From a virus (lineage: Duplodnaviria > Heunggongvirae > Uroviricota > Caudoviricetes), in IMG/VR virus record IMGVR_UViG_2651869755_000010, positions 1 through 15,076 of that record: a stretch of 15,076 nucleotides of DNA. One strand, written 5' to 3'. The notes beneath the pieces were generated by a model. The model saw only the letters and a list, made by a program, of their open reading frames with translations, was not told where the DNA came from and did no database searches. The translations under genes were made by a program, and so were the position numbers. Below are positions 912-15,076 of this stretch, piece by piece (position 1 is the stretch's first letter; each line of letters opens with the position of its first letter).

Positions 912-2888
912 TTACAGGCTGTGCAGGTTAGTCAGGCCGTGTTGTTCCAGAATGGCGCAAAGATTTGTTTTAGCGACGTTATTTTCAAACGCATCATCAA
1001 GGAAATAGCAGACCGTATCTTTCCCAACTTTTAAACTCTTATGCCAGTCGATGATCCCCTTGGTCAGTTCTTCTACTGAAGATGCAGGGATTTGTTTAGC
1101 AAAGCAGGTAAACAATTTGCCACCGTCAACGCAAGAAACGGTTAATCCATCAAACTGACGGGTTTCAATGTCTACACTCAGGTCAATGCCACGCTTAAGC
1201 ATCAACTCTGTGAGTAAATCTTCTTCACTACGGCCTTCGAGGATTGGACTTACATAGGCATCAATCTGTTGTGAAAGGGTATCAGCAGTCGCTTCCCACG
1301 GACGGATGTTAGATGTATCAAGTTTAAACACACGAAAGCCAACATCACCTTTCCATTCTGGATTGTCTTCACGAACTTTTTTACCTGCTCGGCGAAGGCG
1401 TTCTTTAGTTATTTCAGAAATTTTTAATGGCATTCCATTTTTATTTAAGAAGCTTGCAGCAACAATCTGCTCCTTTGTTTCTGGAACAACTGGTTCTGGT
1501 AGTTGCGTAATGATAAAATTTATCTTTCTATTCTTTGTTGCATTGGCCATGAAAACGGCATGACCAAAAGTACCTGATCCCCCAAAAAAATCAAGTGCTA
1601 TACCTTTTTCATTTGGGTGTGTAGCTATTTCTACTATACGTAAAAGAGTACCCAAAGGTTTTGGTCTTGAAAAAACTTCTTTTTCGAATCCCAGCTCAAT
1701 AAATTGTTCACTACCTCTTTCACTATTTACATCTTTATGTGTCCATGAAGAGGTAGCCTTTATTGCATCTCTTTTTGATAAATAGTCTTTCTCCATGATT
1801 CCCCACGTTTTTTTTGTGGGCATGAACTTAGCATAAACACTATCAATTTTCGATTTAGCTGTATCAAAACCCCATCGCCATCGTCCATCAGTACCATCAT
1901 CTCTAATTGGTTTAATTTCAATTAAATCATTTTTTTTCTGGTCTCTAGATATAAATAGTTCGTTTGTTTTTTGATCATAGTAAAAATAGTAAAACATATC
2001 TGGTCGATCTTCTCTACGGTCAGCATCACCAGTTTTACGTAAATCTATGTCACGGAATATTTCACCGTTTTCGTCTGTCTTATTATATCTCTTTGTTATT
2101 TTATCGTCAGGCTCAAAGCCATAGGTTTTTGCATAGTTAATGTTCTTCGCCATTACTAATATATATTCATGAGCTGTTGCTATGAATTTATCGTCAGACC
2201 GTCCTTTTGGATTGTTAGTATTAGCAATAAGGGATATGAAATTTTCTTCTCCAAAAATCTCAAAGCATATGCCACATAGGTTGTGAAGTTCATTTTCATC
2301 AATCGATATAAAAATAAAACCAGAGTTGGCAAGTAAGTTTCTTGCTAATTTTAGGCGAGGGTACATCATATTTAGCCAATCAGTGTGATAACGTCCACTG
2401 GTTTCTGTATTTGTGCTTAAGCGATTTCCATCTTCAGTTTGTCCAGTGATTTCAAGATAATTTTTCATGTTATCTTGGAAGTTATCTGGATACACAAAAT
2501 CTTTCCCGGTATTATAAGGCGGATCGATGTAAATAAGCTTAACTTTTCCAGCGTAGCTTTTTTGAAGAAGCTTCAACACTTCAAGGTTATCACCTTCGAT
2601 CATGACGTTTTTAGTGTTATCCCAATCAACGCTTTCATCTTTACATGGACGTAATGTGCCACGGGAAGGGGTAAGAGCAAGCTGACGAGCCTGACGCTTA
2701 CCATGCCAGTTCAGGCCATAGCGCTCTTCTTTGTCGTCTACATTTTCACCCAAGAGCTGTTTTAAAACGTCAAAATCAATACCGTTTTCATTAAATGCTT
2801 CAGGAAACAAAGAGTTAAGTTTGCTGATATTATCTTCAGTGATATTCATTGATTGTAGTTCTGTCATATCAGAAGTTATTTTTTTCAT
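912..2888 (-). CDS. mod: Type III restriction-modification system Mod subunit (beta-class N6-adenine DNA methyltransferase)
   Basis: 658-aa ORF with motif IV IYIDPPYNTG near residue 120 and motif I LDFFGGSGTFGHAV near residue 430 (beta-class order). The N-terminal region (LNWHGKRQARQLA, IEGDNLEVLKLL) resembles EcoP15I/StyLTI-type Mod. It lies directly upstream of a res-like helicase ORF. Confidence 0.9.
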   Translation of the reverse strand: MKKITSDMTELQSMNITEDNISKLNSLFPEAFNENGIDFDVLKQLLGENVDDKEERYGLNWHGKRQARQLALTPSRGTLRPCKDESVDWDNTKNVMIEGDNLEVLKLLQKSYAGKVKLIYIDPPYNTGKDFVYPDNFQDNMKNYLEITGQTEDGNRLSTNTETSGRYHTDWLNMMYPRLKLARNLLANSGFIFISIDENELHNLCGICFEIFGEENFISLIANTNNPKGRSDDKFIATAHEYILVMAKNINYAKTYGFEPDDKITKRYNKTDENGEIFRDIDLRKTGDADRREDRPDMFYYFYYDQKTNELFISRDQKKNDLIEIKPIRDDGTDGRWRWGFDTAKSKIDSVYAKFMPTKKTWGIMEKDYLSKRDAIKATSSWTHKDVNSERGSEQFIELGFEKEVFSRPKPLGTLLRIVEIATHPNEKGIALDFFGGSGTFGHAVFMANATKNRKINFIITQLPEPVVPETKEQIVAASFLNKNGMPLKISEITKERLRRAGKKVREDNPEWKGDVGFRVFKLDTSNIRPWEATADTLSQQIDAYVSPILEGRSEEDLLTELMLKRGIDLSVDIETRQFDGLTVSCVDGGKLFTCFAKQIPASSVEELTKGIIDWHKSLKVGKDTVCYFLDDAFENNVAKTNLCAILEQHGLTNLHSL

Positions 2889-3067
2889 AAAAAGTATCCG
2901 TCATGAGGTCACGGGAAATCAGTGTCCGAAATTGGTAAGCATTTTACGGTATGAAGTGATAGCCATCAACCAGTGATGGCTATTCAAACATATCTAAAAC
3001 AAAGGGTTACATGCTGCTATATGATGGGTTATCAAACGGTTAGCCGTAATTTTCTAACTCATAATGT

Positions 3068-4339
3068 TCACCTTTGGGCAAACTCAAACGGCCTGACCAT
3101 ATCGTTTCGATTGGCATCAAGGAAGTCAGCCCACCACTGGAGCATCAGTCGGCGCTGGTCAAGGTGTTTAGCCTTATGGGTATAAGCAGCACGGACGCTG
3201 TTGCTTTCCTTATGACTCATCTGAAGCTCTACAGCGTCTTCTGACCACAAACCTGACTCAATTAAGGCACTACAGGCCAGCGTGCGAAAACCGTGCCCAC
3301 AGATGTCCTGCTTCGTGTCATAGCCCATATTGCGAAGGGCTTTGTTGATGGTATTTTCGCTCATGGGCTTAAACGAGTCATAACAGCCAGTAAAGATTAA
3401 TCCATCATCATGGCCTTCTTCATAAGTCAGTTGTCGGATCTCTTTGAGTATCTTCATGGCCTGCTTACAAAGGGGAACGAAGTGCTTACGCTTCATTTTA
3501 GCCCCACGAGTTGAATGTTTGACGTTTTCAATCGCTTCACGCTGTTCGGGTATCACCCATAACTTACTTTTGAAATCAATTTCTGACCAGCGAGCGAAAC
3601 GCAGCTCACTGGAACGAATGAAAATCATCAGATTGAGCTGTATTGCCAGTATGGTTAACCTGCGGCCTTTGTATTCGGCAATTTTTTTCAGTAGTTGGGG
3701 TATTTCTTCCAGTTCCAGTGCAGGGCGGTGTTCAGTCTGCGGTTTCTGAATAGCACCTTCCATATCATAGGCCGGGTTATGACGTATAAGTTTCTGCTGA
3801 ACAGCATGACGCAGGATCGCAGTAATGTATTGTTGAATGCGCATGGCAACTTCAAGATAGCCAAGTGCCTCAACCTTTTTCACTGGAACCAGCAGATCAC
3901 CCGTATCCAGTTCGGCAACATCTTTATCGCCAATTGTCGGGAAGACATAGGTTTCAAGGCGCTTCCATACGGAATCACCATAATCTTTAGACCATTTTGT
4001 TTTCGTGGAGAACCAAGCTTTAGCGACTACGCTGAAAGAGCGTGTTTTATCACGTTTAGCTTTTAGCTCTTTAACTTCTGCCTGTTTCTTGGCATTAGGG
4101 TCAATGCCCTGAGCAAGAAGCCTTCTGGCTTCATCACGGCGTTGTCTTGCGTCAGAAAGAGAAACAGCAGGGTAAACACCAATAGAGAAGAGTTTTTGCT
4201 TCCCTTCAAAACGGTAGGCCATTTGCCAGTATTTGGAACCCTTCGGGGTAACGCGAAGGAACATACCAAAGCCATCAGTAAGCTTGTATTCCTTCTCAAG
4301 GGGTTTGGCATTTTTTGCTTTAATATCAGTCAGTGACAT
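3068..4339 (-). CDS. int: P4-type tyrosine integrase (site-specific recombinase) of the tRNA-Asn island
   Basis: The track ORF is 434 aa; the likely start is the internal ATG at 4339 (MSLTDIKAKNAKP...), typical of P4-family integrases. N-terminal arm-binding-like domain and C-terminal catalytic domain (GHGFRTLACSAL..., AAYTH). Adjacent to the tRNA-Asn 3' end. Confidence 0.85.
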   Translation of the reverse strand: MSLTDIKAKNAKPLEKEYKLTDGFGMFLRVTPKGSKYWQMAYRFEGKQKLFSIGVYPAVSLSDARQRRDEARRLLAQGIDPNAKKQAEVKELKAKRDKTRSFSVVAKAWFSTKTKWSKDYGDSVWKRLETYVFPTIGDKDVAELDTGDLLVPVKKVEALGYLEVAMRIQQYITAILRHAVQQKLIRHNPAYDMEGAIQKPQTEHRPALELEEIPQLLKKIAEYKGRRLTILAIQLNLMIFIRSSELRFARWSEIDFKSKLWVIPEQREAIENVKHSTRGAKMKRKHFVPLCKQAMKILKEIRQLTYEEGHDDGLIFTGCYDSFKPMSENTINKALRNMGYDTKQDICGHGFRTLACSALIESGLWSEDAVELQMSHKESNSVRAAYTHKAKHLDQRRLMLQWWADFLDANRNDMVRPFEFAQR

Positions 4340-4484
4340 GAAAAAATCCCCTCGATTGTTGGTAAAAGGCAAATCGAACCAGCATTACCAGCATTTTTAC
4401 CATCAAAATGATATGGCTTCGAGTGGTTTTTAGTGAACGAGGGTGAACGACTGAAGAGGGATAACCGATTGATAGAAATGCAGA

Positions 4485-4510
4485 AAGCAGACGTTAGTGA
4501 ACGTCTGCTT
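4485..4510 (-). terminator. Candidate intrinsic terminator downstream of tRNA-Asn
   Basis: 9-bp inverted repeat AAGCAGACG / CGTCTGCTT with an 8-nt loop, 10 nt after the tRNA 3' end on the minus strand. It is followed on the transcript by a moderately U-rich tract (UCUGCAUUUCUAU). Confidence 0.35.
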
Positions 4511-4519
4511 CCTTGAAAA

Positions 4520-4595
4520 TGGCTCCTCTGACTGGACTCGAACCAGTGACATACGGATTAACAGTCCGCCGTTCTACCGACTGAACTACAGAGGA
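4520..4595 (-). tRNA. asnT: tRNA-Asn (anticodon GUU)
   Basis: Reverse complement is TCCTCTGTAGTTCAGTCGGTAGAACGGCGGACTGTTAATCCGTATGTCACTGGTTCGAGTCCAGTCAGAGGAGCCA, 76 nt, a canonical cloverleaf with a GTT anticodon and encoded CCA. Called asnT rather than another asn copy because of the neighbouring mtfA and serU. Confidence 0.93.
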
Positions 4596-4695
4596 ATCGT
4601 GAGAACGGGGCGCATATTACTTAGCGGTACCTTGTCTGTCAACACTAAATTTCATAAGCCATTTCAATTGGTTAATTAATCTGCAAAGTTGTTAA

Positions 4696-5493
4696 TTAAT
4701 GAACATTCGTCGCCGAAAACGAGTCTGTATCATTAGCGTGATGCAGTCTCTGCAAAGGATCTTGTTGATAAAATTGACAGAAACGTTGCCACAATGAAGG
4801 GAAACGAGGAGCAAAAAGTTCTGGGGCGCTAAAGAAATATTCAGAAAGTACGGCAAAACATTCAGCAGGATCACTGGCAGCATAAGCATCAATGCTCGCC
4901 GCATTCTCACCAACTAATTCGATTTCTTCCTGAATGTTGTTCATTGCAGCATGAAGATCGTGTTCCCAGCCAGCAACCTCACGCAACGAAATAAAGGGAA
5001 CTCCGCTGGCGCGATCGCCGTTACGGGTGTCCAGCTTATGAGCGACTTCATGAATAATCAGGTTAAAACCAGAAGCATCAAAAGAATCTTGTATATCCAA
5101 CCAGTTCAAAACGATAGGCCCTTGCTGCCAGCTCTGACCTGACTGAACAATACGTTGGTTATGCACCAGACCGATATCGTCTTCCCATTCATCATCGACC
5201 ACAAATGGCGCAGGATAAATTAAGACTTCATGAAAACCATCCAGCCATTCCAGTCCTAACTCCAGAACGGGCAGGCAAAATAGAAGTGCTATCCGGCAGC
5301 TTCTTAATGAATTCAGCTCAAAGCCCTGTAAAGGAACAAGCCGTTTTTGCTGTAAAAAACGTTCGGCAAGAGCGACCAATTTGCTTTGTTCCTGTTCTGT
5401 CAGACACGTTAAAAGGGGGATCGATAGTGCTTCCTGCCAGGGAAGGGCAGTTTGATGTGCTGATTCTTGTACTTTCCAGGGCCACTTAATCAT
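4696..5493 (-). CDS. mtfA: MtfA (Mlc titration factor A), zinc-dependent peptidase family
   Basis: 265-aa product starting MIKWPWK... (ATG at 5493, internal to the track ORF 4696..5532). HExxH zinc-binding motif (IIHEVAHKL). Conserved position between asnT and serU, as in E. coli K-12. Confidence 0.9.
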
Positions 5494-5586
5494 CGTTTTG
5501 CTCGCAAACTCGTCACTTGAACAAAATTGCACGGACAGGGACTGTTAAAATGCCAAATTTCCTGGCATCATGGCAACCATCTGAAC

Positions 5587-5676
5587 GGAGAGATGCCGGA
5601 GCGGCTGAACGGACCGGTCTCGAAAACCGGAGTGGGGGCAACTCCACCGGGGGTTCAAATCCCCCTCTCTCCGCCA
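5587..5676 (+). tRNA. serU: tRNA-Ser (anticodon CGA), with long variable arm
   Basis: GGAGAGATGCCGGAGCGGCTGAACGGACCGGTCTCGAAAACCGGAGTGGGGGCAACTCCACCGGGGGTTCAAATCCCCCTCTCTCCGCCA, 90 nt: class II tRNA with CGA anticodon in the loop CTCGAAA and encoded CCA. Confidence 0.93.
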
Positions 5677-5721
5677 AAATTCAATCACTTACACATCATT
5701 AAGTCAGTGACAAAAATCACA

Positions 5722-5753
5722 CTTGGAATTACTTGGAATATTTTCTTGGAATA
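5722..5753. repeat. Three direct copies of CTTGGAAT in the tRNA-proximal att region (candidate integrase arm-type sites)
   Basis: CTTGGAAT occurs at 5722-5729, 5732-5739 and 5746-5753; the last two sit within a duplicated TTGGAATATTTTC. The repeats straddle the integrase stop codon at the prophage end. Confidence 0.3.
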
Positions 5754-6754
5754 TTTTCAGGTAACGGGACATCAAGTGTCGGTGAAACTTTAACCTTCCT
5801 GTCATAGATTAGCACTTGCCCCTCGGTTTTGTGACCAGAGAAAAGTTGCTTATCCCGACTGCTTCCTTCATAGTCTGAAATTCCTTTCGCCTTCAGATCA
5901 TGAAAGGTGAAGTCGGTTAAAATACCTGAAATTTTGCCTGCGCGATTTCTTGCTTCTACCCACATTTCGTTAAAGCCTTTGTACATATATCGGTTGCCGT
6001 ATTGATTGCTGATTACATAGGCGGATGTTGGTAACTGTTTTGCTTTTTCGATCGCCGCCTGTAATCGTGGACTCCATGCTTTTATCTGTTTTTTTCCTGT
6101 TTTCCCTTGCTGGATAAAGATCCCGTCGTTTCCAATCTGCTCCCATTTCAGCGATAACACATCGGAAACCCTCGCTGCACACAGATAGGCAATTTCCATT
6201 GCGATAAAAACAGGAAGAGGTGCAACGCTTAATACTGCCTGGTATTCTTTGTCGGTTACATATCGTTCGCGGTTTTTGGCCTTGAATTTACTTACACCTG
6301 CACATGGGTTAGCCTTCACGTACCCTCGCTCATACCCCCAACTGTAAACACGGGACATACTGCTTTTTTCATGGTTGGCTTGCGTTTTACTCTGCTCCCC
6401 TCTTTTGTCCATGTATCGACGGATGTGTTCTGGTTTTATGGAATCCGCTGGTACCTTACCGAATACGGCAAGCAACTTTTTTTGATGTTGCAGATAATCT
6501 TTTTGTGTTCTTGGACTAAGGTCACTGTAATAGGCGCTGGCGAGGAATTTTTCCCACAAGCGACCGAATGTCATTGCACGATCGCGATTATTTACAGTTT
6601 CCTCATACTTTTTCCATAAAGCAGCTAAACCATCCTTGATGGCGGTTAGTGTGACAGATTCTCTGGATGTTGGTTTCCATACATAACTATATTTATTTGG
6701 GTATACATTTGGAGGTAATTTTTCGTGTTCAGGATTTTTCCTTCGTCTTCCCAT
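5729..6754 (-). CDS. int: Prophage tyrosine integrase
   Basis: 341-aa ORF with phage-integrase-type C-terminal catalytic region (...FTFHDLKAKGISDY..., ...GHKTEGQVLIYDRK...). Convergent with and adjacent to tRNA-Ser; start codon overlaps the stop of the upstream xis-like ORF (ATGA). Confidence 0.88.
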   Translation of the reverse strand: MGRRRKNPEHEKLPPNVYPNKYSYVWKPTSRESVTLTAIKDGLAALWKKYEETVNNRDRAMTFGRLWEKFLASAYYSDLSPRTQKDYLQHQKKLLAVFGKVPADSIKPEHIRRYMDKRGEQSKTQANHEKSSMSRVYSWGYERGYVKANPCAGVSKFKAKNRERYVTDKEYQAVLSVAPLPVFIAMEIAYLCAARVSDVLSLKWEQIGNDGIFIQQGKTGKKQIKAWSPRLQAAIEKAKQLPTSAYVISNQYGNRYMYKGFNEMWVEARNRAGKISGILTDFTFHDLKAKGISDYEGSSRDKQLFSGHKTEGQVLIYDRKVKVSPTLDVPLPENIPRKYSK

Positions 6755-6957
6755 CAGATCGCACCAAAATTCGGCTCTACCTCGCGTGGTGGTAAAGTTT
6801 TATTGCAGGTAAATAGATCCCGGCTGACAATCGGTTTGCCACTACGATTGGTATAGAACGGAAGCCCGTTTTCCATTAACCATTTTCGCTGGTGGCTTGC
6901 ATATTTGCAGCCCGTTAATATTAGCAATTCATCTTCGGTTAAAAATAAGCTGCTCAT
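6754..6957 (-). CDS. Excisionase-like small protein (DUF4224-like) upstream of integrase
   Basis: 67-aa ORF MSSLFLTEDELLILTGCKYASHQRKWLMENGLPF..., overlapping the int start by 1 nt. Position and sequence pattern match the small proteins found directly upstream of prophage integrases. Confidence 0.55.
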   Translation of the reverse strand: MSSLFLTEDELLILTGCKYASHQRKWLMENGLPFYTNRSGKPIVSRDLFTCNKTLPPREVEPNFGAI

Positions 6958-7015
6958 AGCTATATCTCATAACCGCCGCTAACTATATACGGTTAGCGGC
7001 AATTAGGGTTGAACA

Positions 7016-9457
7016 TTAAAAATCAGCCTGACTCGGGATCAGTTTTTGCCAGATAGCTGAAACGTATTTTGCCTGGTAACGAGCGTCATCAAGTGCATTA
7101 TGGCGCTCACCTTCGAATGGAATAGCCGTTCTGGCATCGAAGTCTATGGCTTTCCCCAGCTCAACGATTGTGCGTACATCGCGATCGTTGTAGTAACGCC
7201 ACGGGCAGGTGATCCCCTGCCGTTCGTATGAACGGCGCAAAATCGTGTTGTCGAAGTTGGCTCCATTTCCCCAGACCTGAACAAAAAATTCACCGGAGTT
7301 TTCGTCGATAAATTCCCGCAATTGTAACAGTGCATCATCTAACGGGATTTCATCGGTCATAATGGCAGATTGCGCTTCGCGTGATTGCTTAAGCCACCAT
7401 TTAATGGTGTCCCGATCAATGACTCCGCCAGCAGTTTCCAGATCGATAGTCTTACTAAATTCCGGTCCCACATCTCCGGTTTGCGGATCGAAAAATATTG
7501 CACCTATTGAGATGATCGGGGCATCAGGATTTTTTCCCATGGTTTCAAGGTCGATCATTAGATGGTCACACGTCCTGCTGGTGGATGTGATTTCTTGATG
7601 ACCGTTCACCTTAATTGAGTGATCTGCCGTCTCGCCAGTTTCATTATCGCTATCGTGATGCTGATTGCCGCCAGTGTTCTCCTTGTGTGGATGTTCAGCG
7701 CCTTCCATTTTCTCCGGATCATTTTCCTGAACTTCAACCTGATTCTCTTCATCGAATGTTTCCTGGTATGTTGCGTCGCCCATCACCGCGCCACAATCAG
7801 GGCAGTTGCCGCCACCGCTCTGACCGCAGGCGGTGCTGACTTTTTCCGGTTCCTGTTGCGCTACTGGTTCGGATTGTTTCGTTTCTGGCTCGTTTTGTAA
7901 CGCATTTGGGCTGTTTTGTTCCGCTTTTTGGTCGTTCCGTTCCGATTCATGCTGGTTCTGGTTCACAGAATCGCGAGTCTGGATCCCCTTGACCCATTTC
8001 GGATCATTAGGGTCGCTAATCCCCTCAACAAATTCACCACGCGATACAGCAAGTAACTTATCGGCGTCAGGCTGGCTGATATTGGCTGCCTGCATAATTT
8101 TGTTTACTTCGTCAGCGGTGACTTTTACTTGGTTAGCGGAACTCACCTGCGACTGAGCATCCAGCGACTGCGCGTTCTGGCCATGTTCAGTTGTATCCGG
8201 TTCCATTGTTTCAGTTGTTGCCTGTTCACCTGCCATTGCGTCAGATGGTTGTGGTTTTTCTTCTTCTGTTTCACGCTCAGTAACCACCTCGCGGTTAATT
8301 TCTTCCAGGATATCTTTTTCCGGCGTATGCCGGGCAGCTGTGAGAGTTTCCTTGCTGGGGTTCTCGTGATCAGTTTCCGTCAAATAGGCGTTGATATACC
8401 CCTGAAGGCGTCCCGGGTAGTGATAAAATTCAGGGTGTGCGCTTCGGATAAGTGCAAAAATAGCGGCGCGGGAATAGTCCAGAATACCCGGGGTTGCACG
8501 AAGTGCTGCGGACCATTCTTTGAACGGACTTTCTTTGTTCAGGACTACTTCTTTTGCGCGACGATAAACGCTGCCCGGAATTTCATAAATATTAAAATCC
8601 ATCGGAAGTGTGGCTGCTGCAATCTCCACATCCAGTGTGTCGAGGGTGTGTACTAAATTCGGATTGCGATCGGTTTTGTTCCCACCGCCAGCATTAGCAC
8701 CGGAAGCCGTGCGGGTGATGCGTGAAACACGATTTCCTTTCATCCACTCTTTTGTCAGCAGACCCCGATCAGTGTAGTCAGCGTCCAGGTATGCTTCGAA
8801 AAAAGCAGTTATTAGTCCCAGGTCTGAATTACCAGGATTAGGGAAAACTTTGTCAGTGTCACGAACCAGTTTGTGGAGGTCGCGAATCTCCAGCGAGTCG
8901 AGCAGACTGGTTTTATGCGAAATAGCCAGGGCAGTAACAGCCGGTAGTTCTTCAGCCCGTGCAATGTGTAATGCCTGGAGTTCGTCGCGTGAAACGTGCG
9001 TTACTGGTTTTTCGCTGCCGTGTTGAGCAAGCCAACGAATGGGCAGTTCCTGACCGGAGACAGGCAGAAGCATGCTCTCCTCAATCTCAGTCATGTCTTC
9101 GCCGTTGATGTTGGTATTGTCAGTGCTGGCTGGTTTGTCCTGAACAGAGGGGGAAGGGCCGATAAATGTCATTGTGATGCCATCTTTCCCGCCTTTTTCA
9201 TAGCGGTTGCAGAATTCAGTATCAAACACGCCTTCTGGCGGAAGGTCGTCAACAACGGGCAAATTGACGCGGACGGGTTTTTTAAAGTCGTCTTCATCAT
9301 AATCGTTGTCATCCATTGCGGTAATGCAGCGGGAGATTGCAACAGATAATTTTTTTGCTGTAGTCCAGTAAAAACCACCTTTAATTCCCAGGCGTTTTCT
9401 TACTTTGTCATTTTTTGCTTCGCAATATAGTGCAAATTCTTCTTTATCAGTGCTCAT
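7016..9457 (-). CDS. Prophage exonuclease: long RecE/YdfE-like N-terminal region with acidic low-complexity centre and C-terminal DnaQ-like DEDDh 3'-5' exonuclease domain
   Basis: 813-aa ORF. The C-terminal 190 aa carry Exo I (MIDLETMG), Exo II (VWGNGANFD) and Exo III ([13 protein letters not shown]) motifs. The centre is Glu/Gln/Asp-rich and contains [13 protein letters not shown]. Position between xis and the dicB module matches ydfE (Qin) and recE (Rac). Confidence 0.8.
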
Positions 9458-9550
9458 TATTGATAAACCTCATCACAGATTTAAGGGTGAACAAATCTCT
9501 GCCATTGCTGACATATAAGAATGAAACTGGATATTTATTACGGTGCTGTT

Positions 9551-9739
9551 TTAAAATCCTGCCGGGATTTCGTTATCCTGGTGAATAACTTTATCGACCG
9601 GATAACAGTTGCCTGGAATTTTCTGTTCGGTTGCTGCGGCCATACATTCCTGCATTGTTCTGTGAACACTGACTGCAATATCAACTGGCTCTCCGGAAAC
9701 AAGAAAAACCGTCAGAATAAGTGCAAATACTGGATTCAT
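9551..9739 (-). CDS. ydfD: YdfD-like small lysis protein of the dicB operon
   Basis: 62-aa product MNPVFALILTVFLVSGEPVDIAVSVHRTMQECMAAATEQKIPGNCYPVDKVIHQDNEIPAGF, with a hydrophobic N-terminus. Start is the internal ATG at 9739 with an AAGGA Shine-Dalgarno, overlapping the dicB stop (ATGA). Matches my recollection of K-12 YdfD in size and sequence. Confidence 0.65.
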   Translation of the reverse strand: MNPVFALILTVFLVSGEPVDIAVSVHRTMQECMAAATEQKIPGNCYPVDKVIHQDNEIPAGF

Positions 9740-9924
9740 TGTGCACATCCTTTTGGCATCAGACGTAAACGGGCCAGCATTGAAACAATGCATACTTTAT
9801 TTAATAACTCCCGTTCGTGTTTTCTTTTGTTAATGGCCTCTTCAGTGAATACAGGATTACTGATAGTGACACCAATTTCAAAACAACCTTCAGACGTATT
9901 AACGTTTGGTAATAACGTTTTCAT
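9736..9924 (-). CDS. dicB: DicB cell-division inhibitor (MinC-dependent FtsZ-ring inhibitor)
   Basis: 62-aa product MKTLLPNVNTSEGCFEIGVTISNPVFTEEAINKRKHERELLNKVCIVSMLARLRLMPKGCAQ, starting at the internal ATG 9924 with a GAGGA Shine-Dalgarno 8 nt upstream. Near-identical to my recollection of E. coli DicB, and directly downstream of DicF. Confidence 0.75.
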   Translation of the reverse strand: MKTLLPNVNTSEGCFEIGVTISNPVFTEEAINKRKHERELLNKVCIVSMLARLRLMPKGCAQ

Positions 9925-10093
9925 TATCGCGTCCTCAACAATGAATTTTGTGATGCAGTGCCTGGTGCCTCCAGGTGACGTTAACCAGTTAACAATTAAC
10001 GCCGGATACAGAGAATCCACCCATAACACTGTTTTTGGTTTTAACTGTTCCGCGTGCGCTTAGCCGCATTCACCGCATCACAAAATTCACTTT

Positions 10094-10151
10094 AAAAACG
10101 GCGGCAGAGCAGTCACGGAGTAAAACTGATACCGCCAAACGTCACCAGAAA
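10094..10151 (-). ncRNA. dicF: DicF small RNA (ftsZ-targeting Hfq-dependent sRNA) with U-tail
   Basis: Minus-strand sequence TTTCTGGTGACGTTTGGCGGTATCAGTTTTACTCCGTGACTGCTCTGCCGCCG followed by TTTTT matches the 53-nt DicF sequence as I recall it. Contains a GGCGG...CCGCC terminator-like stem and lies between ydfC and dicB as in Qin. Ends are approximate. Confidence 0.7.
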
Positions 10152-10491
10152 ATTGATAACAGAGGGCGTTGCAGCGGGGTTGTCACTTAAGCGTATGGTC
10201 AACCTGACAACCCGGTGTCCTCAACGGGGAAGGAATAACCCCGCCATACTTACCGCCGCGCCATTTCGCGGATTGCCACAACCGGAAGCGCACGGTCGAC
10301 GAAAATTTAACGACAGGCTATCTATGAACCAGCTACCTCGCCGTGCGCTTTCGCGTTATGGTCTGACCTTTCAGGGAAATATCCTTTCAGTAAACTGTCT
10401 GTGCCGGATGCTCACCCGTGTCCGGCGCACGCACTCCACCTCATCCGTGGAGAACTCCTTAATTACCAACCTTAGCTTCGTTGGTTAGCTA

Positions 10492-10710
10492 TTAACGCGG
10501 GTATGTAATCATTCTGGCAATGCTTAATGCCGCTGCTTTTTCCAGATTAGTGATATCCTGCTCCAGAGCGGACAGATTTTCAGCCTGCTTAGCCCTGGCT
10601 TCATTGGCCCATTTCAGATCCTGCGCTGCATTAATTTTCTGGTGCATCCACTCATAAAGTTCATCATCGGTATAGTCTGGCGCGATGATGACGGGTTCTC
10701 GTTTCTGCAT
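10492..10710 (-). CDS. ydfC: YdfC-like small protein of the dicB operon
   Basis: 72-aa ORF MQKREPVIIAPDYTDDELYEWMHQKINAAQDLKWANEARAKQAENLSALEQDITNLEKAAALSIARMITYPR, with an AAGGAG Shine-Dalgarno 6 nt upstream of ATG 10710. Size and position match ydfC upstream of DicF. Confidence 0.65.
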   Translation of the reverse strand: MQKREPVIIAPDYTDDELYEWMHQKINAAQDLKWANEARAKQAENLSALEQDITNLEKAAALSIARMITYPR

Positions 10711-10802
10711 GTCGGCTCCTTGTGGTTAGCGTTGCCTGCTTTTAACCACGTCAGGCGAGGTGGTATCCTCTGAGGGGTCTGTTACTCGAGAGGAAATTGG
10801 TT

Positions 10803-11003
10803 ATGAGTACAATCAAGTTTTCTTGCCCAGAATGTGGTGGCGAAGTCTTTGACACATCCTTTAAGTCGCAGGGCTCTGACAGTTTCGCGGGAGCCATCTG
10901 CAAAAATTGTGGTCACCTTGTAACTGAAGATGAGTCCTCGCAGTTCGATGACGAAATCGTTGACAATATCTTCGGTGCACTTACCAGAGACTTTCTGAAG
11001 TAA
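10803..11003 (+). CDS. Small zinc-ribbon protein (CPECGG...CKNCGH), hypothetical; oriented opposite to the surrounding early-left operon
   Basis: 66-aa ORF MSTIKFSCPECGGEVFDTSFKSQGSDSFAGAICKNCGHLVTEDESSQFDDEIVDNIFGALTRDFLK, with a GAGAGGA Shine-Dalgarno 8 nt upstream of ATG 10803. Two CxxC pairs are spaced as in a zinc ribbon. The overlapping minus-strand ORF 10782..11138 uses 6 rare Arg codons (AGA/AGG/CGA) out of 9 and looks like a shadow frame. Confidence 0.4.
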   Translation: MSTIKFSCPECGGEVFDTSFKSQGSDSFAGAICKNCGHLVTEDESSQFDDEIVDNIFGALTRDFLK

Positions 11004-11049
11004 AGGCGCATACCGCTTAGTTACCGCTCTGATAATTCTTACCTGTCCG

Positions 11050-11092
11050 GCAATGGCGCTGATGTCAATATAAAGCGCCATTGCTGCTTCTT
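11050..11092 (+). terminator. Candidate intrinsic terminator downstream of the zinc-ribbon ORF
   Basis: Perfect 11-bp inverted repeat GCAATGGCGCT / AGCGCCATTGC (11050-11060 and 11074-11084) with a 13-nt loop, followed by TGCTTCTTTG. The loop is larger than usual for a terminator. Confidence 0.3.
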
Positions 11093-11348
11093 TGCCGATC
11101 CCGGGATGCCTTCCATTCTGATGTTTGACTTCGCCCACTGAGAAATCCTCTGTTTCCCCTTAACGCCGGGGTAGCGGAACAAAAACCTGCTGCATAGTTA
11201 TTAAAGTTGAACCCTGCCGTCATGTTCTTACGCCTCGGGCTGGCTACTTAACCCCTGACCACTGCCTGGTAACTCGAAGTATTGCCCTGCATTCTGTAGG
11301 ATGGGGTGAGGGAATGAATGAAGTTTAGAAAAACGAACTTTTCAGGTC

Positions 11349-11370
11349 AATGTTTTTTTATCAAAACATT
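11349..11370. promoter_or_regulatory. Candidate left operator (oL-like) palindrome AATGTTTT-N6-AAAACATT downstream of cI, probable pL region
   Basis: Palindrome TGTTTT-tttatc-AAAACA at 11351-11368, extending to 11349-11370. It has the same 6-6-6 geometry as the palindrome overlapping the cI start at 12073-12090. Confidence 0.35.
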
Positions 11371-11434
11371 TTAAGCAGGCAGCTGTTAAGCCATCACCAC
11401 GATGGCATACAGTTAATCAAATAGATGAGGTTGG

Positions 11435-12073
11435 TTAAATATCTTGTTGAATTTTAAAGCATACGCCCAATATGCAAGATAGATCATCCAGCATAATTGA
11501 AGGGTAGCGAGGATTCGTGGGGACTAAAAGAATATCCGGCCCTTCTATCTCCAGTTTACGAATGACAGGTGTTGTGGTCCCTTTGGGTAAGGCAAGGACA
11601 ATATTTCCTGGTTGTACGGTTCGATCGGGATCAACAAAAACTGTTGAACCATTTGGGATGGAAACTCCCCCACCAGATGTTGACATACTGTCACTCTCTA
11701 GAACAACTGCAAAGGTATTGACCGGGATTTCTCCGACAAGCTGCACACAAGAGGTTATTGAGGAATTTTTCATATAATCACTCCAGCTTGCTGCCTGCTG
11801 AAGTGATAGTAGCGGAACCGTTTTTATCGGCGGTAAAGATAGATCAAGCGAATCACCTGTATTTAACTCTCCTCCATTAAGAAGCCAATTTTCGTTTACT
11901 TTCAATATTTTTGCCAGGGAACTTATGTAACGCGAGGACGGCGCTCCTCCACCGTTCATCCATTGACTTACGGAGCCTTTTGATGCGCCAGTGCCATTGA
12001 CAAGGTCTTTGCCTTTCAGGTTTAGCGCATGCATACGTTGGGTTATGCGTTCAGATATAGTTTGCTTGCTCAT
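11435..12073 (-). CDS. CI-type prophage repressor (N-terminal HTH, C-terminal S24 LexA-like autopeptidase domain)
   Basis: 212-aa ORF with an N-terminal HTH region (...GKDLVNGTGASKGSVSQWMNGG...) and a C-terminal S24-like domain (candidate Ser in VLESDSMSTSGG, Lys in VIRKLE). Divergent from a cro-like gene. No Shine-Dalgarno precedes the start codon, which lies inside the operator palindrome. Confidence 0.85.
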   Translation of the reverse strand: MSKQTISERITQRMHALNLKGKDLVNGTGASKGSVSQWMNGGGAPSSRYISSLAKILKVNENWLLNGGELNTGDSLDLSLPPIKTVPLLSLQQAASWSDYMKNSSITSCVQLVGEIPVNTFAVVLESDSMSTSGGGVSIPNGSTVFVDPDRTVQPGNIVLALPKGTTTPVIRKLEIEGPDILLVPTNPRYPSIMLDDLSCILGVCFKIQQDI

Positions 12074-12136
12074 GTTTTGATTTTAAAACACAGATGGTTT
12101 TGTTTCTTGACTTTCTTTGGTTTTGATTATTAAACT
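12073..12136. promoter_or_regulatory. Immunity-region operator/promoter segment (oR-like): palindrome TGTTTT-N6-AAAACA at 12073-12090, degenerate copy at 12119-12136, candidate pR -35 TTGACT at 12107-12112
   Basis: The 91-bp divergent cI/cro intergenic region holds TGTTTTgattttAAAACA, GGTTTTgattatTAAACT and a recurring GGTTTTG motif. TTGACT lies 17 bp upstream of TTAAAC, oriented toward cro. Confidence 0.4.
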
Positions 12137-12164
12137 TTTGACGTTCAGTTTTATGGAGCGACTC

Positions 12165-12407
12165 ATGAAAAAATCAGAAGTATTAGGCTATTTTGGCGGA
12201 GTTGTTAAAACAGCCGCAGCTCTAGGAACGTCAAAAACCACAGTCAGCATGTGGGGGGAAGAGGTTCCGTGGAAATGGGCGTTGCTAATTCAGGCAGTCA
12301 CTGCCGGGGCGCTCAAATATGAGTTACACATACCGACGGTTGTCATTCCCGGTTCTGATCATAATCCGCCTTCTAACCAAGGGGGGATTCATGAAAATCA
12401 AGCATGA
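12165..12407 (+). CDS. Cro-like / YdaS-family HTH regulator
   Basis: 80-aa ORF MKKSEVLGYFGGVVKTAAALGTSKTTVSMWGEEVPWKWALLIQAVTAGALKY..., with a GGAG Shine-Dalgarno upstream of ATG 12165. It is the first gene of the rightward operon, divergent from cI. The 3' end overlaps the next gene by 17 nt, so the true C-terminus is uncertain. Confidence 0.6.
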   Translation: MKKSEVLGYFGGVVKTAAALGTSKTTVSMWGEEVPWKWALLIQAVTAGALKYELHIPTVVIPGSDHNPPSNQGGIHENQA

Positions 12408-12816
12408 ACACATCCGCATGGCGATGAATGCCTGGGCGCATCCGGACGGCGAAAAAGTACCGGCTGCGAAAATTACCAAAGCGTATTTCGAGCTGGGAAT
12501 GACGTTCCCGGAACTGTACGACGACAGCCATCCGGAAGCCCTGGCCCGTAATACCCAGAAAATTTTCCGCTGGGTGGAGAAGGACACCCCTGATGCTGTT
12601 GAAAAAATTCAGGCTCTGTTACCGGCGATCGAAAAGGCGATGCCGCCTTTGCTGGTGGCCCGTATGCGCAGCCACAGTTCTGAATATTACCGTGAGATCG
12701 TCGAACGGAGGGATCGGCTGGTGAAGGATGTCGATGATTTTGTTGCGTCAGCGGTTGTTTTGTATGACCAGATGAATCGCGGCGGCCCGGCAGGGAATGC
12801 TGTGGTGATGCACTAA
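12391..12816 (+). CDS. YdaT-like protein (second gene of rightward early operon)
   Basis: 141-aa product MKIKHEHIRMAMNAWAHPDGEKVPAAKITKAYFELGMTFPELYDD..., starting at the internal ATG 12391 preceded by a GGGGGG Shine-Dalgarno. The N-terminus (MKIKHEH) matches my recollection of YdaT-family proteins that follow cro-like genes in Rac-like prophages. Confidence 0.6.
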   Translation: MKIKHEHIRMAMNAWAHPDGEKVPAAKITKAYFELGMTFPELYDDSHPEALARNTQKIFRWVEKDTPDAVEKIQALLPAIEKAMPPLLVARMRSHSSEYYREIVERRDRLVKDVDDFVASAVVLYDQMNRGGPAGNAVVMH

Positions 12817-12838
12817 AAGCACGGTGTTCGGGGGTTTT

Positions 12839-13801
12839 ATGAGCAGCAAGCTTCATGGTCTTGTCTGGGAAGGGTGCGCCTTCACCGGCATGATCTTATC
12901 CAGGGTGGCGGTTATGGCCCGTCTTGCAGACTACAGCAATGACGAGGGTGTGTCATGGCCTGCCATTGAAACTATCCGGCGTCAGATCGGTGCAAGAAGT
13001 GAATCCACAGTGAAATCGGCTATTGCAGAACTGGCGAAAGAGGGCTGGCTGACGAAGGAAGAGCGTAAGGTCGGTGGGCGTAATGTAAGCAATATCTATC
13101 GGCTTAATGTGGAAAAACTCGAAGCAGCTGCGGCGGCGGCGCGTGAGTCATATAAACCGAAAAGAAAAATTAGCCCGGCAAAAAATGACCCGTTAACAGT
13201 TGACCCGTCAAATATTGACCCCTCAACGGTTGACCCGTCAAATTTTGATGGATCAACTGTTGATAAAAAACTGCCGATTAGGGGGGCGATGATTGACCCC
13301 GATCCGTCAGTATTAAAACCTGATCCGTCAGATAAAAGATCTTCTTGTCCGGACGCTTCGCAACCGGACCCGCAGACGGCTGAACAGGATTTTTTAACCC
13401 GACACCCTGACGCGGTTGTGTTCAGTGCGAAAAAACGCCAGTGGGGAAGTCAGGAAGATTTGGTGTGCGCACAGTGGATCTGGGGACGAATCGTGAGTCT
13501 TTACGAGCAGGCGGCCAGCTATGATGGCGAGATCACTAGACCGAAAGAACCCAACTGGACAGCATGGGCCAATGACGTTCGCACAATGCGGATGCTGGAT
13601 GGCAGAACTCACAGACAAATTTGTGAAATGTTTGGGCGTCTCCAGCGGGATTCGTTCTGGGTAAAAAACATCATGAGTCCGGCAAAACTCCGGGAAAAAT
13701 GGGATGAACTGGTTATCCGCCTGGGGCGTTCGCCTGCGCAGCGTTGCGTGAATCACATTTCTGAACCGGACACTGAAATACCGCCGGGATTCAGGGGGTG
13801 A
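12839..13801 (+). CDS. Phage replication initiator (O-like, N-terminal winged-HTH) with internal iterons
   Basis: 320-aa product from ATG 12839 (track ORF begins at GTG 12824). The N-terminal wHTH-like region (...SWPAIETIRRQIGARSESTVKSAIAELAKEGWL...) is followed by a DP-rich linker encoded by 15-bp direct repeats. Sits directly upstream of a DnaC-like gene. Confidence 0.75.
   Translation: MSSKLHGLVWEGCAFTGMILSRVAVMARLADYSNDEGVSWPAIETIRRQIGARSESTVKSAIAELAKEGWLTKEERKVGGRNVSNIYRLNVEKLEAAAAAARESYKPKRKISPAKNDPLTVDPSNIDPSTVDPSNFDGSTVDKKLPIRGAMIDPDPSVLKPDPSDKRSSCPDASQPDPQTAEQDFLTRHPDAVVFSAKKRQWGSQEDLVCAQWIWGRIVSLYEQAASYDGEITRPKEPNWTAWANDVRTMRMLDGRTHRQICEMFGRLQRDSFWVKNIMSPAKLREKWDELVIRLGRSPAQRCVNHISEPDTEIPPGFRG
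13186..13260. repeat. Five tandem 15-bp iterons (TGACCCGTnAAnnnT) inside the replication initiator gene; probable phage replication origin
   Basis: TGACCCGTTAACAGT, TGACCCGTCAAATAT, TGACCCCTCAACGGT, TGACCCGTCAAATTT and TGATGGATCAACTGT are contiguous. More degenerate copies follow (TGATAAAAAACTGCC at 13261, GACCCCGATCCGTCAG near 13295, TGATCCGTCAG at 13321). Confidence 0.6.
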
Positions 13802-13807
13802 CGTGTC

Positions 13808-14554
13808 ATGAAAAACATTGCGGCAGTTGGGGTTCTTGAACGTATTCGCAGACTTGCACCACAGGGGTCGGTTCCACCGTACCGGACGGTGGAGGAGTGG
13901 CGGGAATGGCAACTTGCTGAAGGACGAAAACGCAGCGAGGAGATTAACCGCCAGAATCGCCAGTTGCGGGTGGAAAAAATCCTGAATCGTTCGGGCATCC
14001 AGCCTCTGCACAGCAAATGCTCGTTTGCAAATTATCAGGTGCAGAACGACGGGCAAAAATACGCGCTGAGCCAGGCCAAATCCATAGCTGACGAACTGAT
14101 GACCGGGTGCACGAATTTTGTGTTCAGCGGTAAAACCGGCACCGGGAAAAATCACCTTGCAGCGGCGATGGGCAACCGGCTGATGGTGAAGGGGCGCAGC
14201 GTGATTATCGTCACCGTGTCTGACGTCATGAGCGTGTTGCATGACAGCTACGACAACGGCAAATCCGGGGAAAAATTTTTACAGGAGCTTTGCGGGGTTG
14301 ATTTGCTGGTCCTGGATGAAATAGGCGTTCAGCGGGAGACGAAAAACGAGCAGGTGGTATTGCACCAGATAATTGATCGCCGGACAGCATCACTGTGCAG
14401 TGTCGGGATGTTAACAAACCTGAATCATGTCGCAATGAGTACGCTTCTTGGTGAGAGGATTATGGACCGCATGACCATGAACGGTGGTCGATGGGTGACG
14501 TTTAACTGGGATAGCTGGCGTCCAAATGTCAGCAATATGAGGGTTGTGAAGTAA
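13808..14554 (+). CDS. DnaC-like helicase loader / IstB-like AAA+ ATPase (phage replication protein)
   Basis: 248-aa ORF with Walker A (FSGKTGTGKNHLAAA) and Walker B (DLLVLDEIG), preceded by an AGGGGG Shine-Dalgarno. Downstream of the initiator gene as in Rac ydaU-ydaV and lambda O-P. Confidence 0.85.
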   Translation: MKNIAAVGVLERIRRLAPQGSVPPYRTVEEWREWQLAEGRKRSEEINRQNRQLRVEKILNRSGIQPLHSKCSFANYQVQNDGQKYALSQAKSIADELMTGCTNFVFSGKTGTGKNHLAAAMGNRLMVKGRSVIIVTVSDVMSVLHDSYDNGKSGEKFLQELCGVDLLVLDEIGVQRETKNEQVVLHQIIDRRTASLCSVGMLTNLNHVAMSTLLGERIMDRMTMNGGRWVTFNWDSWRPNVSNMRVVK

Positions 14555-14575
14555 TTTTGTCCGGAGGATATTTTA

Positions 14576-15076
14576 ATGGAAACCGTATCTGACGCACTGA
14601 AAGCACTGAAAAAAGCCTCTTCACATGTGGTGGCAGCTCGCCTTGGAATCAGTCGTGAAGAGGCTGTCAACGAGCTGTGGGAACTCAAAAGAAATGGCGT
14701 CGTTGATAAAACTGGTCACACCTGGTTTCTGGCTGGCGAAGGTGAATCCCGGGTAACCGAAGAGCGGCCAGTAAAATCTGAAGCACAGGATATGCTGACC
14801 GGGGAGGTCGAACAAAAAGTTACCGCCGACATGATGATTGAGTTTATCGGTCAGGATGGGGCTAAAACGTGTGAGGAACTGGCGGGTAAGTTCGGTGTCA
14901 GTACTCGCAAGGTTGCTTCCACGCTGGCGGTGGTAACCGCAACGGGGCGGCTGGCACGCGTTAATCAGAACGGTAAATTTCGTTACTGCATGCCGGGCGA
15001 TAATTTACCAGCAGAGCCGAAAGCCGCGCTGGTAACGGAAAGTGATGGTAAGGCCTTTCCTCAGCCAGCAGGTGCT
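14576..15076 (+). CDS. Hypothetical prophage protein with two tandem winged-helix-like repeats (3'-partial, continues past window end)
   Basis: ATG 14576 is preceded by GGAGG with an 8-nt spacer; the frame is open for 167 codons to the window end. Two similar segments: ...AARLGISREEAVNELWELKRNGVVDKTGHTWF... and ...LAGKFGVSTRKVASTLAVVTATGRLARVNQNGKFRY... Confidence 0.55.
   Translation, partial: METVSDALKALKKASSHVVAARLGISREEAVNELWELKRNGVVDKTGHTWFLAGEGESRVTEERPVKSEAQDMLTGEVEQKVTADMMIEFIGQDGAKTCEELAGKFGVSTRKVASTLAVVTATGRLARVNQNGKFRYCMPGDNLPAEPKAALVTESDGKAFPQPAGA

Follow-up and report, generated by a model that had tools for sequence, protein, structure and literature searches.

A candidate antisense overlapping gene pair in an E. 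coli prophage: a small putative zinc-binding protein and a ~99-residue protein on opposite strands

Within a 15,076-nucleotide stretch of E. coli prophage DNA (IMG/VR record IMGVR_UViG_2651869755_000010, positions 1 to 15,076; here referred to as the window), a segment of about 200 bp carries open reading frames on both strands. The plus strand contains a 66-residue ORF with a four-cysteine zinc-ribbon signature (C8-P-E-C11 and C33-K-N-C36), and this ORF is fully contained within a longer frame on the minus strand that is co-directional with the early-left operon (Table 1). An automatic ORF listing starts the plus ORF at TTG 10797 (68 aa). The Shine-Dalgarno sequence lies 8 nt before the ATG. 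The minus frame is open as far as a GTG that is preceded at 7 nt by AGAGGA, giving a 118-aa reading, and 8 of its 9 Arg codons are AGA, AGG, CGA or CGG. The first-pass annotation described these elements correctly. However, its conclusion that only one of the two ORFs is likely to be real is not supported.

Table 1. Coordinates of the features at the overlapping locus within the window.
Position	Strand	Feature
10742-10769	+	Candidate promoter of the zinc-ribbon gene: TTAACC, 16 nt, TG-n-TATCCT (extended -10)
10788-10794	+	Shine-Dalgarno sequence of the zinc-ribbon ORF (GAGAGGA)
10803-11003	+	Zinc-ribbon ORF (ATG to TAA), 66 aa, CPEC-x21-CKNC, ECs_2282 family
10782-11081	-	Long antisense ORF (ATG 11081 to TAA 10782), 99 aa
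11004-11081	-	26 N-terminal codons of the long ORF outside the zinc-ribbon ORF
11082-11138	-	Upstream extension of the open frame to GTG 11138 (19 codons), probably leader rather than coding
11048-11086	+	Conserved hairpin, likely 3' end or terminator of the zinc-ribbon mRNA; contains the ATG of the long ORF on the other strand
11322-11369	-	Candidate early-left promoter PL (11350-11322; TTGACC, 17 nt, TAAACT) abutting an operator-like palindrome ATGTTTTTTTATCAAAACAT
12072-12090		Recurrence of the palindrome, between the repressor gene and the rightward genes
12120-12138		Recurrence of the palindrome, between the repressor gene and the rightward genes

The plus ORF is already annotated in RefSeq (WP_001092153.1) as an "ECs_2282 family putative zinc-binding protein", at the homologous position between ydfC and the repressor gene. 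It scores 55.9 bits against the curated cutoff of 37 for NCBIfam NF047912.1 (E 3e-15, profile positions 1-56 of 60). It belongs to a family of 79 clusters, at 50% identity, of ~65-residue proteins, and in 38 diverse relatives the four cysteines are the only invariant columns. The minus ORF, in turn, matches PHROG 21318, a phage protein of unknown function, at E 1.6e-65, with residues 20-118 of the 118-aa reading aligned to positions 1-99 of the 99-position profile. Homologues in other genera start at the position of ATG 11081 with strong Shine-Dalgarno sequences (GGAG or GAGG), whereas in the window this ATG has only a weak one (AAGAAG) and sits in the stem of the hairpin. The extension upstream to the GTG is absent or not alignable in other genera and lies outside the PHROG profile, and by eye the E. 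coli alleles differ here mostly by amino-acid changes.

Profile and structure searches otherwise yielded little. Nothing in Pfam reached threshold for either protein, and the similarity to Lar/Ral restriction alleviation proteins (PF14354; 13.3 bits against a gathering score of 28.6, E 0.099) is only that of generic zinc ribbons. A partial match to the PADLOC defence candidate PDC-M14A (profile positions ~18-87 of 152, E 9e-4 for the window and 8.8e-6 for the related locus L011) is not full-length and, without examination of partner genes, is no more than a lead. The AlphaFold models are mediocre, with a mean pLDDT of 64.8 for the long ORF, predicted as an alpha/beta fold with pLDDT 77-81 in the helices, and 50.9 for the zinc-ribbon ORF modelled without metal. 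Foldseek against BFVD gave nothing below E = 1, and profile searches of the PDB returned only noise (FliG, T4 lysozyme and a weak small CPxCG zinc-finger hit at E 0.014). No Rfam family matched positions 10650-11450, even at E = 1. A scan of species-representative genomes produced only three unrelated zinc-finger hits in MAGs, and a single-protein scan found nothing, whereas degenerate DNA patterns were successful. The locus tag was not found in a literature search.

The module lies downstream of the candidate PL, which was identified by a promoter scan and whose adjoining palindrome is shared with the OR region. The same layout is annotated in phage HK639, where pL is followed by putL and then by HK639_45, which is the long ORF, although the PL leader of the window shows no similarity to HK639 putL. 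The zinc-ribbon ORF is indeed antisense to the early-left transcription unit, as the first-pass annotation proposed. It also behaves like a moron, being present in 937 of 5426 complete E. coli genomes and residing in several unrelated genomic contexts. On the plus RNA the downstream hairpin forms 13 pairs (-23.1 kcal/mol, z = -4.35, with 0 of 200 shuffles folding as well), compared with -19.4 kcal/mol and z = -2.4 on the minus RNA. Its 9-bp core is kept in 7 lineages, three of the 13 predicted pairs show compensatory changes, and one pair is G-U on the plus strand in 4 of 7 lineages, which would be a C-A mismatch on the minus strand. A run of T follows the hairpin in three related loci (L007, L010 and L082). 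The hairpin works on the plus RNA and probably terminates the zinc-ribbon transcript inside the long ORF. The candidate promoter is less certain, as it matches only 8 of 12 consensus positions and falls below the threshold of the scan, but by eye a TG-n-TAT-N-N-T motif recurs about 30-40 nt upstream of the zinc-ribbon ATG in most lineages. AAGGAG or AAGGAA is found at the Shine-Dalgarno spacing in the other lineages.

The two frames are codon-aligned, in that plus position 1 equals minus position 3 and position 2 equals position 2, which is the classic shadow frame. For a single sequence an open antisense frame is therefore not remarkable, with P about 0.11 for the overlapped part and an estimated (61/64)^45, or about 0.12, for the 45 extra codons. 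What exceeds chance is the comparative pattern. Both ORFs occur together in about 19 diverged lineages with as little as ~25-30% identity, including E. coli, Klebsiella, Citrobacter, Enterobacter, Brenneria and GC-rich environmental contigs, and in early-left and early-right operons, a baseplate cluster and a tail cluster, where the long ORF is usually co-directional with its neighbours. The long frame is open in all 69 unique module DNAs and in all distant relatives except L330, a relative with the zinc-ribbon gene alone; a few nonsense or frameshift alleles are the other exceptions to both frames being intact. The naive product over 10 lineages is about 1e-9 in each direction (for the long frame, a per-lineage chance of 0.05-0.35 and a product of 1e-8.8). 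The lineages share ancestry and are not fully independent, but a rough product over five deep lineages still gives about 1e-4.

Substitution patterns indicate purifying selection on each frame. Among 10 lineages all four Cys codons are kept in 10 of 10, that is, 40 of 40 codons which under long-ORF-only coding would be free third positions of Ala or Thr codons, requiring GCA or ACA throughout (P ~1e-25). Within the overlap, sites synonymous in both frames change fastest, followed by zinc-ribbon-synonymous sites, long-ORF-synonymous sites and sites non-synonymous in both. Relative to the last class the changes-per-site ratio is 4.9 for zinc-ribbon-synonymous sites and 2.4-2.9 for long-ORF-synonymous sites, whereas for the latter eight ordinary genes from the same loci give 0.96-1.55 (p = 0.02 against 1.55). 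The proportion of zinc-ribbon-synonymous sites that differ is 0.42-0.6, against 0.65-0.84 in the controls. The zinc-ribbon frame is the more constrained of the two inside the overlap. These counts rest on parsimony and Nei-Gojobori estimates rather than on a likelihood model for overlapping genes. Relative synonymous codon usage did not separate real genes from shadow frames in these loci, and the rare Arg codons noted by the first-pass annotation mirror, in the overlap, the Ser codons TCT and TCG of the plus frame and do not argue against translation.

Importantly, the 26 codons of the long ORF that lie outside the zinc-ribbon ORF provide a built-in control. Tree-based counts give 52 synonymous and 50 non-synonymous changes over 19.7 and 58.3 sites, so that omega is ~0.32 (p = 2e-8), and changes by long-ORF codon position are 29, 20 and 53; the signal appears in this frame only. 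Distant clades show the same signature, with pS of 0.56-0.93 against pN of 0.31-0.54. An N-terminal L-x-[IV]-D-[TA]-S motif persists at 25-30% identity and where the DNA is only 38-58% identical, with L3 and D6 nearly invariant in 37 sequences. The N-terminus MALYIDISAIAGQ has no arginine-rich motif, and in the absence of any Pfam or NCBIfam hit, and given that the gene also occurs in tail clusters, a lambda N-type antiterminator was rejected. A type I toxin-antitoxin system was likewise rejected, as neither protein is a small hydrophobic peptide and the antisense partner is a conserved protein rather than a non-coding RNA. Of the outcome that the first-pass annotation had set as refuting its proposal only half is seen: the minus-strand protein is conserved at the amino-acid level with synonymous variation, but the zinc-ribbon frame is conserved as well, and more strongly.

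The explanation favored here, with moderate confidence and without expression data for either strand, is that the locus is a compact cassette in which both DNA strands encode a protein, both being maintained by purifying selection and moving between phage genomes as one unit. As to how it works, it may be inferred that the long ORF has no promoter of its own and is read as part of the surrounding operon, here the PL transcript, so that it is made only after prophage induction. The zinc-ribbon gene would be a separate convergent transcription unit, with a weak extended -10 promoter and a terminator hairpin, that can be expressed while PL is repressed in the lysogen. When PL fires, RNA polymerase would read through the zinc-ribbon promoter and gene, and collision, promoter occlusion and sense-antisense RNA pairing should then shut the zinc-ribbon gene off. 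The two proteins would therefore be produced in mutually exclusive states, lysogeny versus lytic growth.

The alternative scenario, that only the zinc-ribbon gene is real and the minus frame is a shadow ORF, is unlikely but deserves consideration. Stops in the codon-aligned antisense frame need the codons TTA, CTA or TCA on the coding strand, so that the frame could stay open passively, while the extension beyond the zinc-ribbon stop might be conserved as the 3' UTR and terminator of the zinc-ribbon mRNA. Indeed, L330 keeps the antisense frame open across the zinc-ribbon ORF without having the long gene, a conserved hairpin does lie in the extension, RefSeq annotates only the zinc-ribbon gene, and codon-aligned reverse frames that are open without protein function have been argued for in narnaviruses (PMC8155312). 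Nevertheless, an RNA structure does not produce three-base periodicity, and the frame-specific omega, the persistent protein motif, the ATG and Shine-Dalgarno sequences in other genera, the orientation with the host operon and the excess over control genes all weigh against it. It is also possible, though again unlikely, that both frames were once coding but that in the E. coli lineage of the window the long ORF is a relic, no longer functional or only marginally so, kept open by constraint on the zinc-ribbon gene. Within the E. coli clade alone the overlap ratio is 1.47 (not significant), omega in the non-overlapped part rises to 0.48, the start codon has a weak Shine-Dalgarno sequence, and the frame has drifted open upstream to a GTG. 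However, this omega is still below 1 (p = 0.03), statistical power within this shallow clade is low, and none of about 40 E. coli-type alleles carries a stop specific to the long ORF, whereas two natural zinc-ribbon nonsense alleles (E14* and E44*) leave the long ORF intact.

The converse view, that the long ORF is an ordinary member of the early-left operon and the zinc-ribbon ORF a chance antisense frame carrying two CxxC pairs, is very improbable. Phage Evi, HK639_45 and PHROG 21318 are among the many cases where only the long ORF is annotated, the long ORF is co-directional with its neighbours, and zinc-ribbon nonsense alleles do circulate. This view is contradicted by the substitution pattern, as it is impossible for zinc-ribbon-synonymous sites to evolve faster than long-ORF-synonymous sites if only the long ORF were coding, and further by the retained cysteines, the curated family and the existence of L330. 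One intriguing but doubtful possibility goes further than the favored explanation, namely that the cassette is an old, horizontally mobile pair that works as a protein-level sense/antisense switch. The zinc-ribbon protein would be made from the repressed prophage, for example as an exclusion or defence factor or as a regulator, and would be replaced, and perhaps antagonised, by its mirror-encoded partner only when the surrounding lytic operon fires. Physical overlap would guarantee that the two are inherited together and never co-expressed, and this would be a rare deeply conserved antisense protein-coding pair in phages.

Whether long antisense overlapping ORFs in bacteria and phages really encode proteins is a long-standing dispute (10.1101/724807; PMC7457138). 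Both partners of the present pair are known separately. NF047912 names one gene of unknown function and says nothing of a second protein, and in the RefSeq record inspected no gene is annotated on the opposite strand. PHROG 21318 and HK639_45, the latter a distant homologue of the long ORF that carries the zinc-ribbon ORF on its opposite strand, represent only the long ORF, for which no function is known. Each resource therefore misses one of the two genes, at a locus found in about 17% of complete E. coli genomes.

Antisense ORFs embedded in other coding ORFs have been described in E. coli O157:H7, such as ano and others from RNA-seq and ribosome profiling (PMC5960689; PMC9927249; bioRxiv 10.1101/2020.11.18.388249), and in Pseudomonas aeruginosa (PMC8850804), likewise with purifying selection as evidence. 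This locus is not mentioned in the main text of the two E. coli overlapping-gene papers searched. The P. aeruginosa pair is described as evolutionarily novel, and such ORFs probably tend to be young and embedded in old housekeeping genes. In contrast, both partners here are small, co-occur at ~25-30% identity and are mobile between phage contexts, although the case rests on evolutionary evidence and, unlike those examples, not on expression data. In the ambigrammatic narnavirus genomes the frame relation is the same, with avoidance of the three codons that mirror stops, but the reverse frame is argued not to encode a functional protein (PMC8155312), whereas here it extends 24-31 codons beyond its partner and that part evolves like a protein. 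The arrangement is also reminiscent of convergent or antisense control in temperate-phage switches, such as lambda oop/cII, P22 sar/ant and coliphage 186 PR/PL, where a short transcript appears to run against an early operon close to the immunity region. Interestingly, in two related loci (L005 and L006) the module sits directly after cro, which would be the position of cII and oop. In those systems the antisense partner appears to be a non-coding RNA or a promoter, whereas here the antisense transcript would itself encode a conserved protein.

Read leftward on the minus strand, the window is a lambdoid prophage of E. coli in which a repressor with HTH and S24 peptidase domains is followed by the overlapping ORF pair, by ydfC and by the DicF RNA, and then, as annotated in the homologous RefSeq locus (L001), by dicB, ydfD, an exonuclease, excisionase and integrase. 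The DicF small RNA lies between ydfC and the region homologous to dicB, which confirms a Qin/DicB-type early-left operon. A candidate PL on the minus strand abuts an operator-like palindrome that recurs twice between the repressor gene and the rightward genes, and these are the likely OL and OR sites of this immunity type. The ORF pair therefore lies just downstream of PL, and the plus ORF is antisense to the early-left transcript. Elsewhere in the window, two tRNA genes lie next to an ORF that is taken to be the integrase, and the tRNA-Ser gene is a likely attachment site of the prophage.

Coordinates of features in the window and in two related sequences
Feature	Location	Coordinates	Strand	Details
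tRNA-Asn(GTT)	window	4520-4595	-	
tRNA-Ser(CGA)	window	5587-5676	+	likely attachment site
ORF taken to be the integrase	window	5729-6754		341 residues
DicF small RNA	window	10099-10150	-	Rfam RF00039, 72.5 bits
ydfC	window	10492-10710	-	
Non-coding element upstream of the Zn ORF	window	10735-10795		~60-70 nt
Plausible weak extended -10 promoter of the Zn gene (inferred)	window	10742-10769	+	TTAACC, 16 nt, TG-n-TATCCT
Overlapping ORF pair	window	10782-11138		
N-terminal codons of the long ORF outside the Zn ORF	window	11004-11081	-	26 codons
Hairpin	window	11048-11086		
Candidate PL	window	11350-11322	-	TTGACC, 17 nt, TAAACT
Operator-like palindrome, at the candidate PL	window	11350-11369		ATGTTTTTTTATCAAAACAT; ATGTTTT-n6-AAAACAT
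Operator-like palindrome, recurrences	window	12072-12090, 12120-12138		
Repressor (HTH and S24 peptidase domains)	window	11435-12073	-	
Zinc-ribbon gene without a long antisense gene	L330 (soil metagenome contig)	761-961		
Extended long ORF	L180 (Klebsiella phage 2b LV-2017)	2486-2962		158 residues

The details recorded in the first-pass annotation all check out, namely the ORF coordinates, the ribosome-binding site (GAGAGGA) and four Cys of the plus ORF, the Shine-Dalgarno sequence (AGAGGA) before GTG 11138, the richness of the minus ORF in rare Arg codons (eight out of nine), and the hairpin. Its reading of the plus-strand zinc-ribbon (Zn) ORF is supported, and that gene is already annotated; its assumption that only one of the two frames is likely real is not supported. 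Interestingly, each strand is already annotated, but in different resources. RefSeq carries the plus ORF as an "ECs_2282 family putative zinc-binding protein" (WP_001092153.1), and the plus ORF passes the NCBIfam model NF047912 with 55.9 bits against a cutoff of 37. Conversely, the minus ORF matches phrog_21318 at E 1.6e-65 over residues 20-118, and the phage records of Evi and HK639 annotate the minus ORF only. In a large protein collection, both translations have called homologues in Klebsiella, Citrobacter and Enterobacter. Homology searching therefore does not choose between the frames.

DNA for relatives was collected from encoding contigs, phage records, viral contigs, two DNA-pattern scans of viral sequences, and metagenomes. 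All 69 unique E. coli-like and related module sequences keep the long antisense frame open across the Zn ORF and beyond it, and so do about 19 diverged lineages, including Klebsiella phage types at ~29% Zn identity, Brenneria, and environmental contigs of 57-60% G+C. By contrast, unrelated zinc-finger ORFs caught by the same DNA pattern, mostly ~300-residue proteins, have many antisense stops and serve as a negative control. One relative, on the soil metagenome contig L330, has the Zn gene alone: its antisense frame is open for only 71 codons, with no ATG and no N-terminal domain, and here the Zn gene runs with its neighbours. The module occurs in 937 of 5426 complete E. coli genomes, at 1403 places in all.

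The genomic contexts of the module are diverse. It provides the first ORF after PL in this window, in Klebsiella phages and in HK639, where pL and putL are annotated; in two relatives (L005, L006) it lies directly after cro in the early-right operon; in myovirus-like prophages (L174, L177, L178) it lies between spike or antirepressor genes and the sheath-initiator and baseplate-J genes; and in Klebsiella phage 2b LV-2017 (L180) it lies directly after the tape-measure gene. In nearly all of these the long ORF runs with its neighbours and the Zn ORF runs against them. In the baseplate context, strong intrinsic terminators on the operon strand (for example AACCTCGC...GCGGGGTTTTTT) flank the cassette, upstream of the long ORF in L177, L178 and a further relative, L012, and downstream of it in L174; the cassette is insulated like a moron even though the long ORF is co-directional with the operon. 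The N-terminus of the long ORF also varies. In L180 it is fused to, or extended by, a ~65-residue N-terminal domain and still carries the Zn ORF on the other strand, whereas in the Enterobacter lineage (L064-L075, P0045, P0046) it has an extra N-terminal ~30 residues carrying its own CxxC pair (for example SECPHCGF) and is preceded by a strong TTGACT, 17 nt, TAATAT promoter.

Several lines of evidence show that the zinc-ribbon frame is coding. A profile search of 1.84 billion representatives found 79 clusters, nearly all 58-83 residues long, and the four Cys are the only invariant columns in 38 diverse relatives. In 10 lineages all 40 Cys codons are kept; the long frame reads them as GCA or ACA, and if only the long frame were coding these third positions would be free (P ~1e-25). 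Changes per site, counted by class on a parsimony tree of 34 unique sequences, were 0.40 for sites non-synonymous in both frames, 0.97 for sites synonymous only in the long frame, 1.93 for sites synonymous only in the Zn frame, and 3.3 for sites synonymous in both frames. Thus, sites that alter the long protein but not the Zn protein evolve faster than sites that alter the Zn protein but not the long one.

For the long frame, the key region is the 24-31 N-terminal codons that lie outside the Zn ORF (26 in this window). Here 52 synonymous and 50 non-synonymous changes were counted over 19.7 and 58.3 sites, giving omega ~0.32 with p = 2e-8, and changes by codon position are 29, 20 and 53, a pattern that the other two minus-strand frames do not show. 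Independent distant clades give pS 0.56-0.93 against pN 0.31-0.54. Moreover, the motif L-x-[IV]-D-[TA]-S, followed by an amphipathic helix, persists where the DNA is only 38-58% identical, and other genera have a strong Shine-Dalgarno sequence and an ATG at the position of ATG 11081. Inside the overlap, long-ORF-synonymous sites change 2.4 times faster than sites non-synonymous in both frames (2.9 outside the E. coli clade), whereas eight ordinary genes from the same loci, at 56-80% identity, give 0.96-1.55; the difference is significant at p = 0.02 against 1.55 and p = 2.7e-5 against 1. The proportion of Zn-synonymous sites that differ is 0.42-0.6, against 0.65-0.84 in these controls. Both results are as expected if the second frame constrains the first. 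The chance that the long frame stays open given only the Zn protein is 0.05-0.35 per lineage; the naive product over 10 lineages is 1e-8.8, and a back-of-envelope product over five deep lineages is about 1e-4. The 19 codons between ATG 11081 and GTG 11138 are not conserved in other genera and are taken as leader.

The order of the substitution rates excludes the possibility that only the long ORF is coding. In an alternative scenario, the long frame merely mirrors the Zn gene. Codon-aligned reverse frames can be maintained without a functional product, as argued for narnaviruses (PMC8155312); it is the non-overlapped codons that separate the present case from that one. It is also possible to ask whether the long ORF has decayed in E. 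coli, since within this shallow clade the long-frame signal is weak (the overlap ratio is 1.47, which is not significant, and omega in the non-overlapped part is 0.48 with p = 0.03) and the ATG at 11081 has a weak ribosome-binding site. Against decay, none of about 40 E. coli-type alleles has a stop specific to the long ORF, whereas two nonsense alleles of the Zn ORF that leave the long ORF intact circulate: E14*, in at least 12 contigs (L280 and six other viral contigs, together with L304, L305, L311, L325 and L336), and E44* (GAG>TAG, in L061), which is a synonymous Leu change in the long frame. On balance, the best explanation is a conserved, mobile antisense overlapping gene pair, and we hold dual coding to be reasonably likely, with less confidence in the model of expression discussed below.

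The AlphaFold models are moderate, the long ORF having a mean pLDDT of 64.8, with helices at 77-81 and the topology beta-alpha-alpha-alpha-beta-beta-alpha, and the Zn ORF a pLDDT of 50.9 from only seven sequences; no structural or PDB relatives were found. Weak matches of the Zn protein to the PADLOC candidate PDC-M14A (E 9e-4 to 9e-6) and to phrog_4852 (E 1e-9) are leads only.

With regard to transcription signals, the hairpin is more stable on the plus RNA (-23.1 kcal/mol, z = -4.35) than on the minus RNA (-19.4, z = -2.4). Across seven lineages its 9-bp core is kept, three of the 13 predicted pairs show compensatory changes, and one pair is G-U on the plus strand in four lineages, which would be C-A on the minus strand. 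The hairpin therefore acts on the Zn transcript, most simply as its terminator, and in several lineages a run of T follows. On the minus strand the hairpin contains the start codon of the long ORF and has no trailing U run, and PL transcription should therefore pass through it. A TG-n-TAT-N-N-T motif lies 30-40 nt upstream of the Zn ATG in most lineages, and in this window it might form part of a weak extended -10 promoter, although this is an inference. Just upstream of the Zn ORF, in this window and in relatives L007, L010, L064, L011 and L174, there is also a non-coding element (GCCTG-TTTT-ACCAC-TCAGGC-GGTGGTAT, then a stem-loop) that is almost identical between lineages whose ORFs are only ~29% identical. 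Its second stem covaries (CTTGG/CCAAG, GCTGG/CCAGC, CTCTGG/CCAGAG, CCTCT/AGAGG) around a conserved loop TTCYCACACA; the element recurs in the Brenneria baseplate context and has no Rfam match.

These observations suggest a mechanism, which is inferred, whereby the long ORF would be expressed as part of the host operon, here the PL transcript after induction, while the Zn gene would be a convergent unit that can be active in the lysogen. PL read-through should then silence the Zn gene by collision, promoter occlusion and RNA pairing. This logic would appear to resemble that of lambda oop/cII, P22 sar/ant and the convergent promoters of phage 186, with the difference that here the antisense transcript would itself encode a conserved protein.
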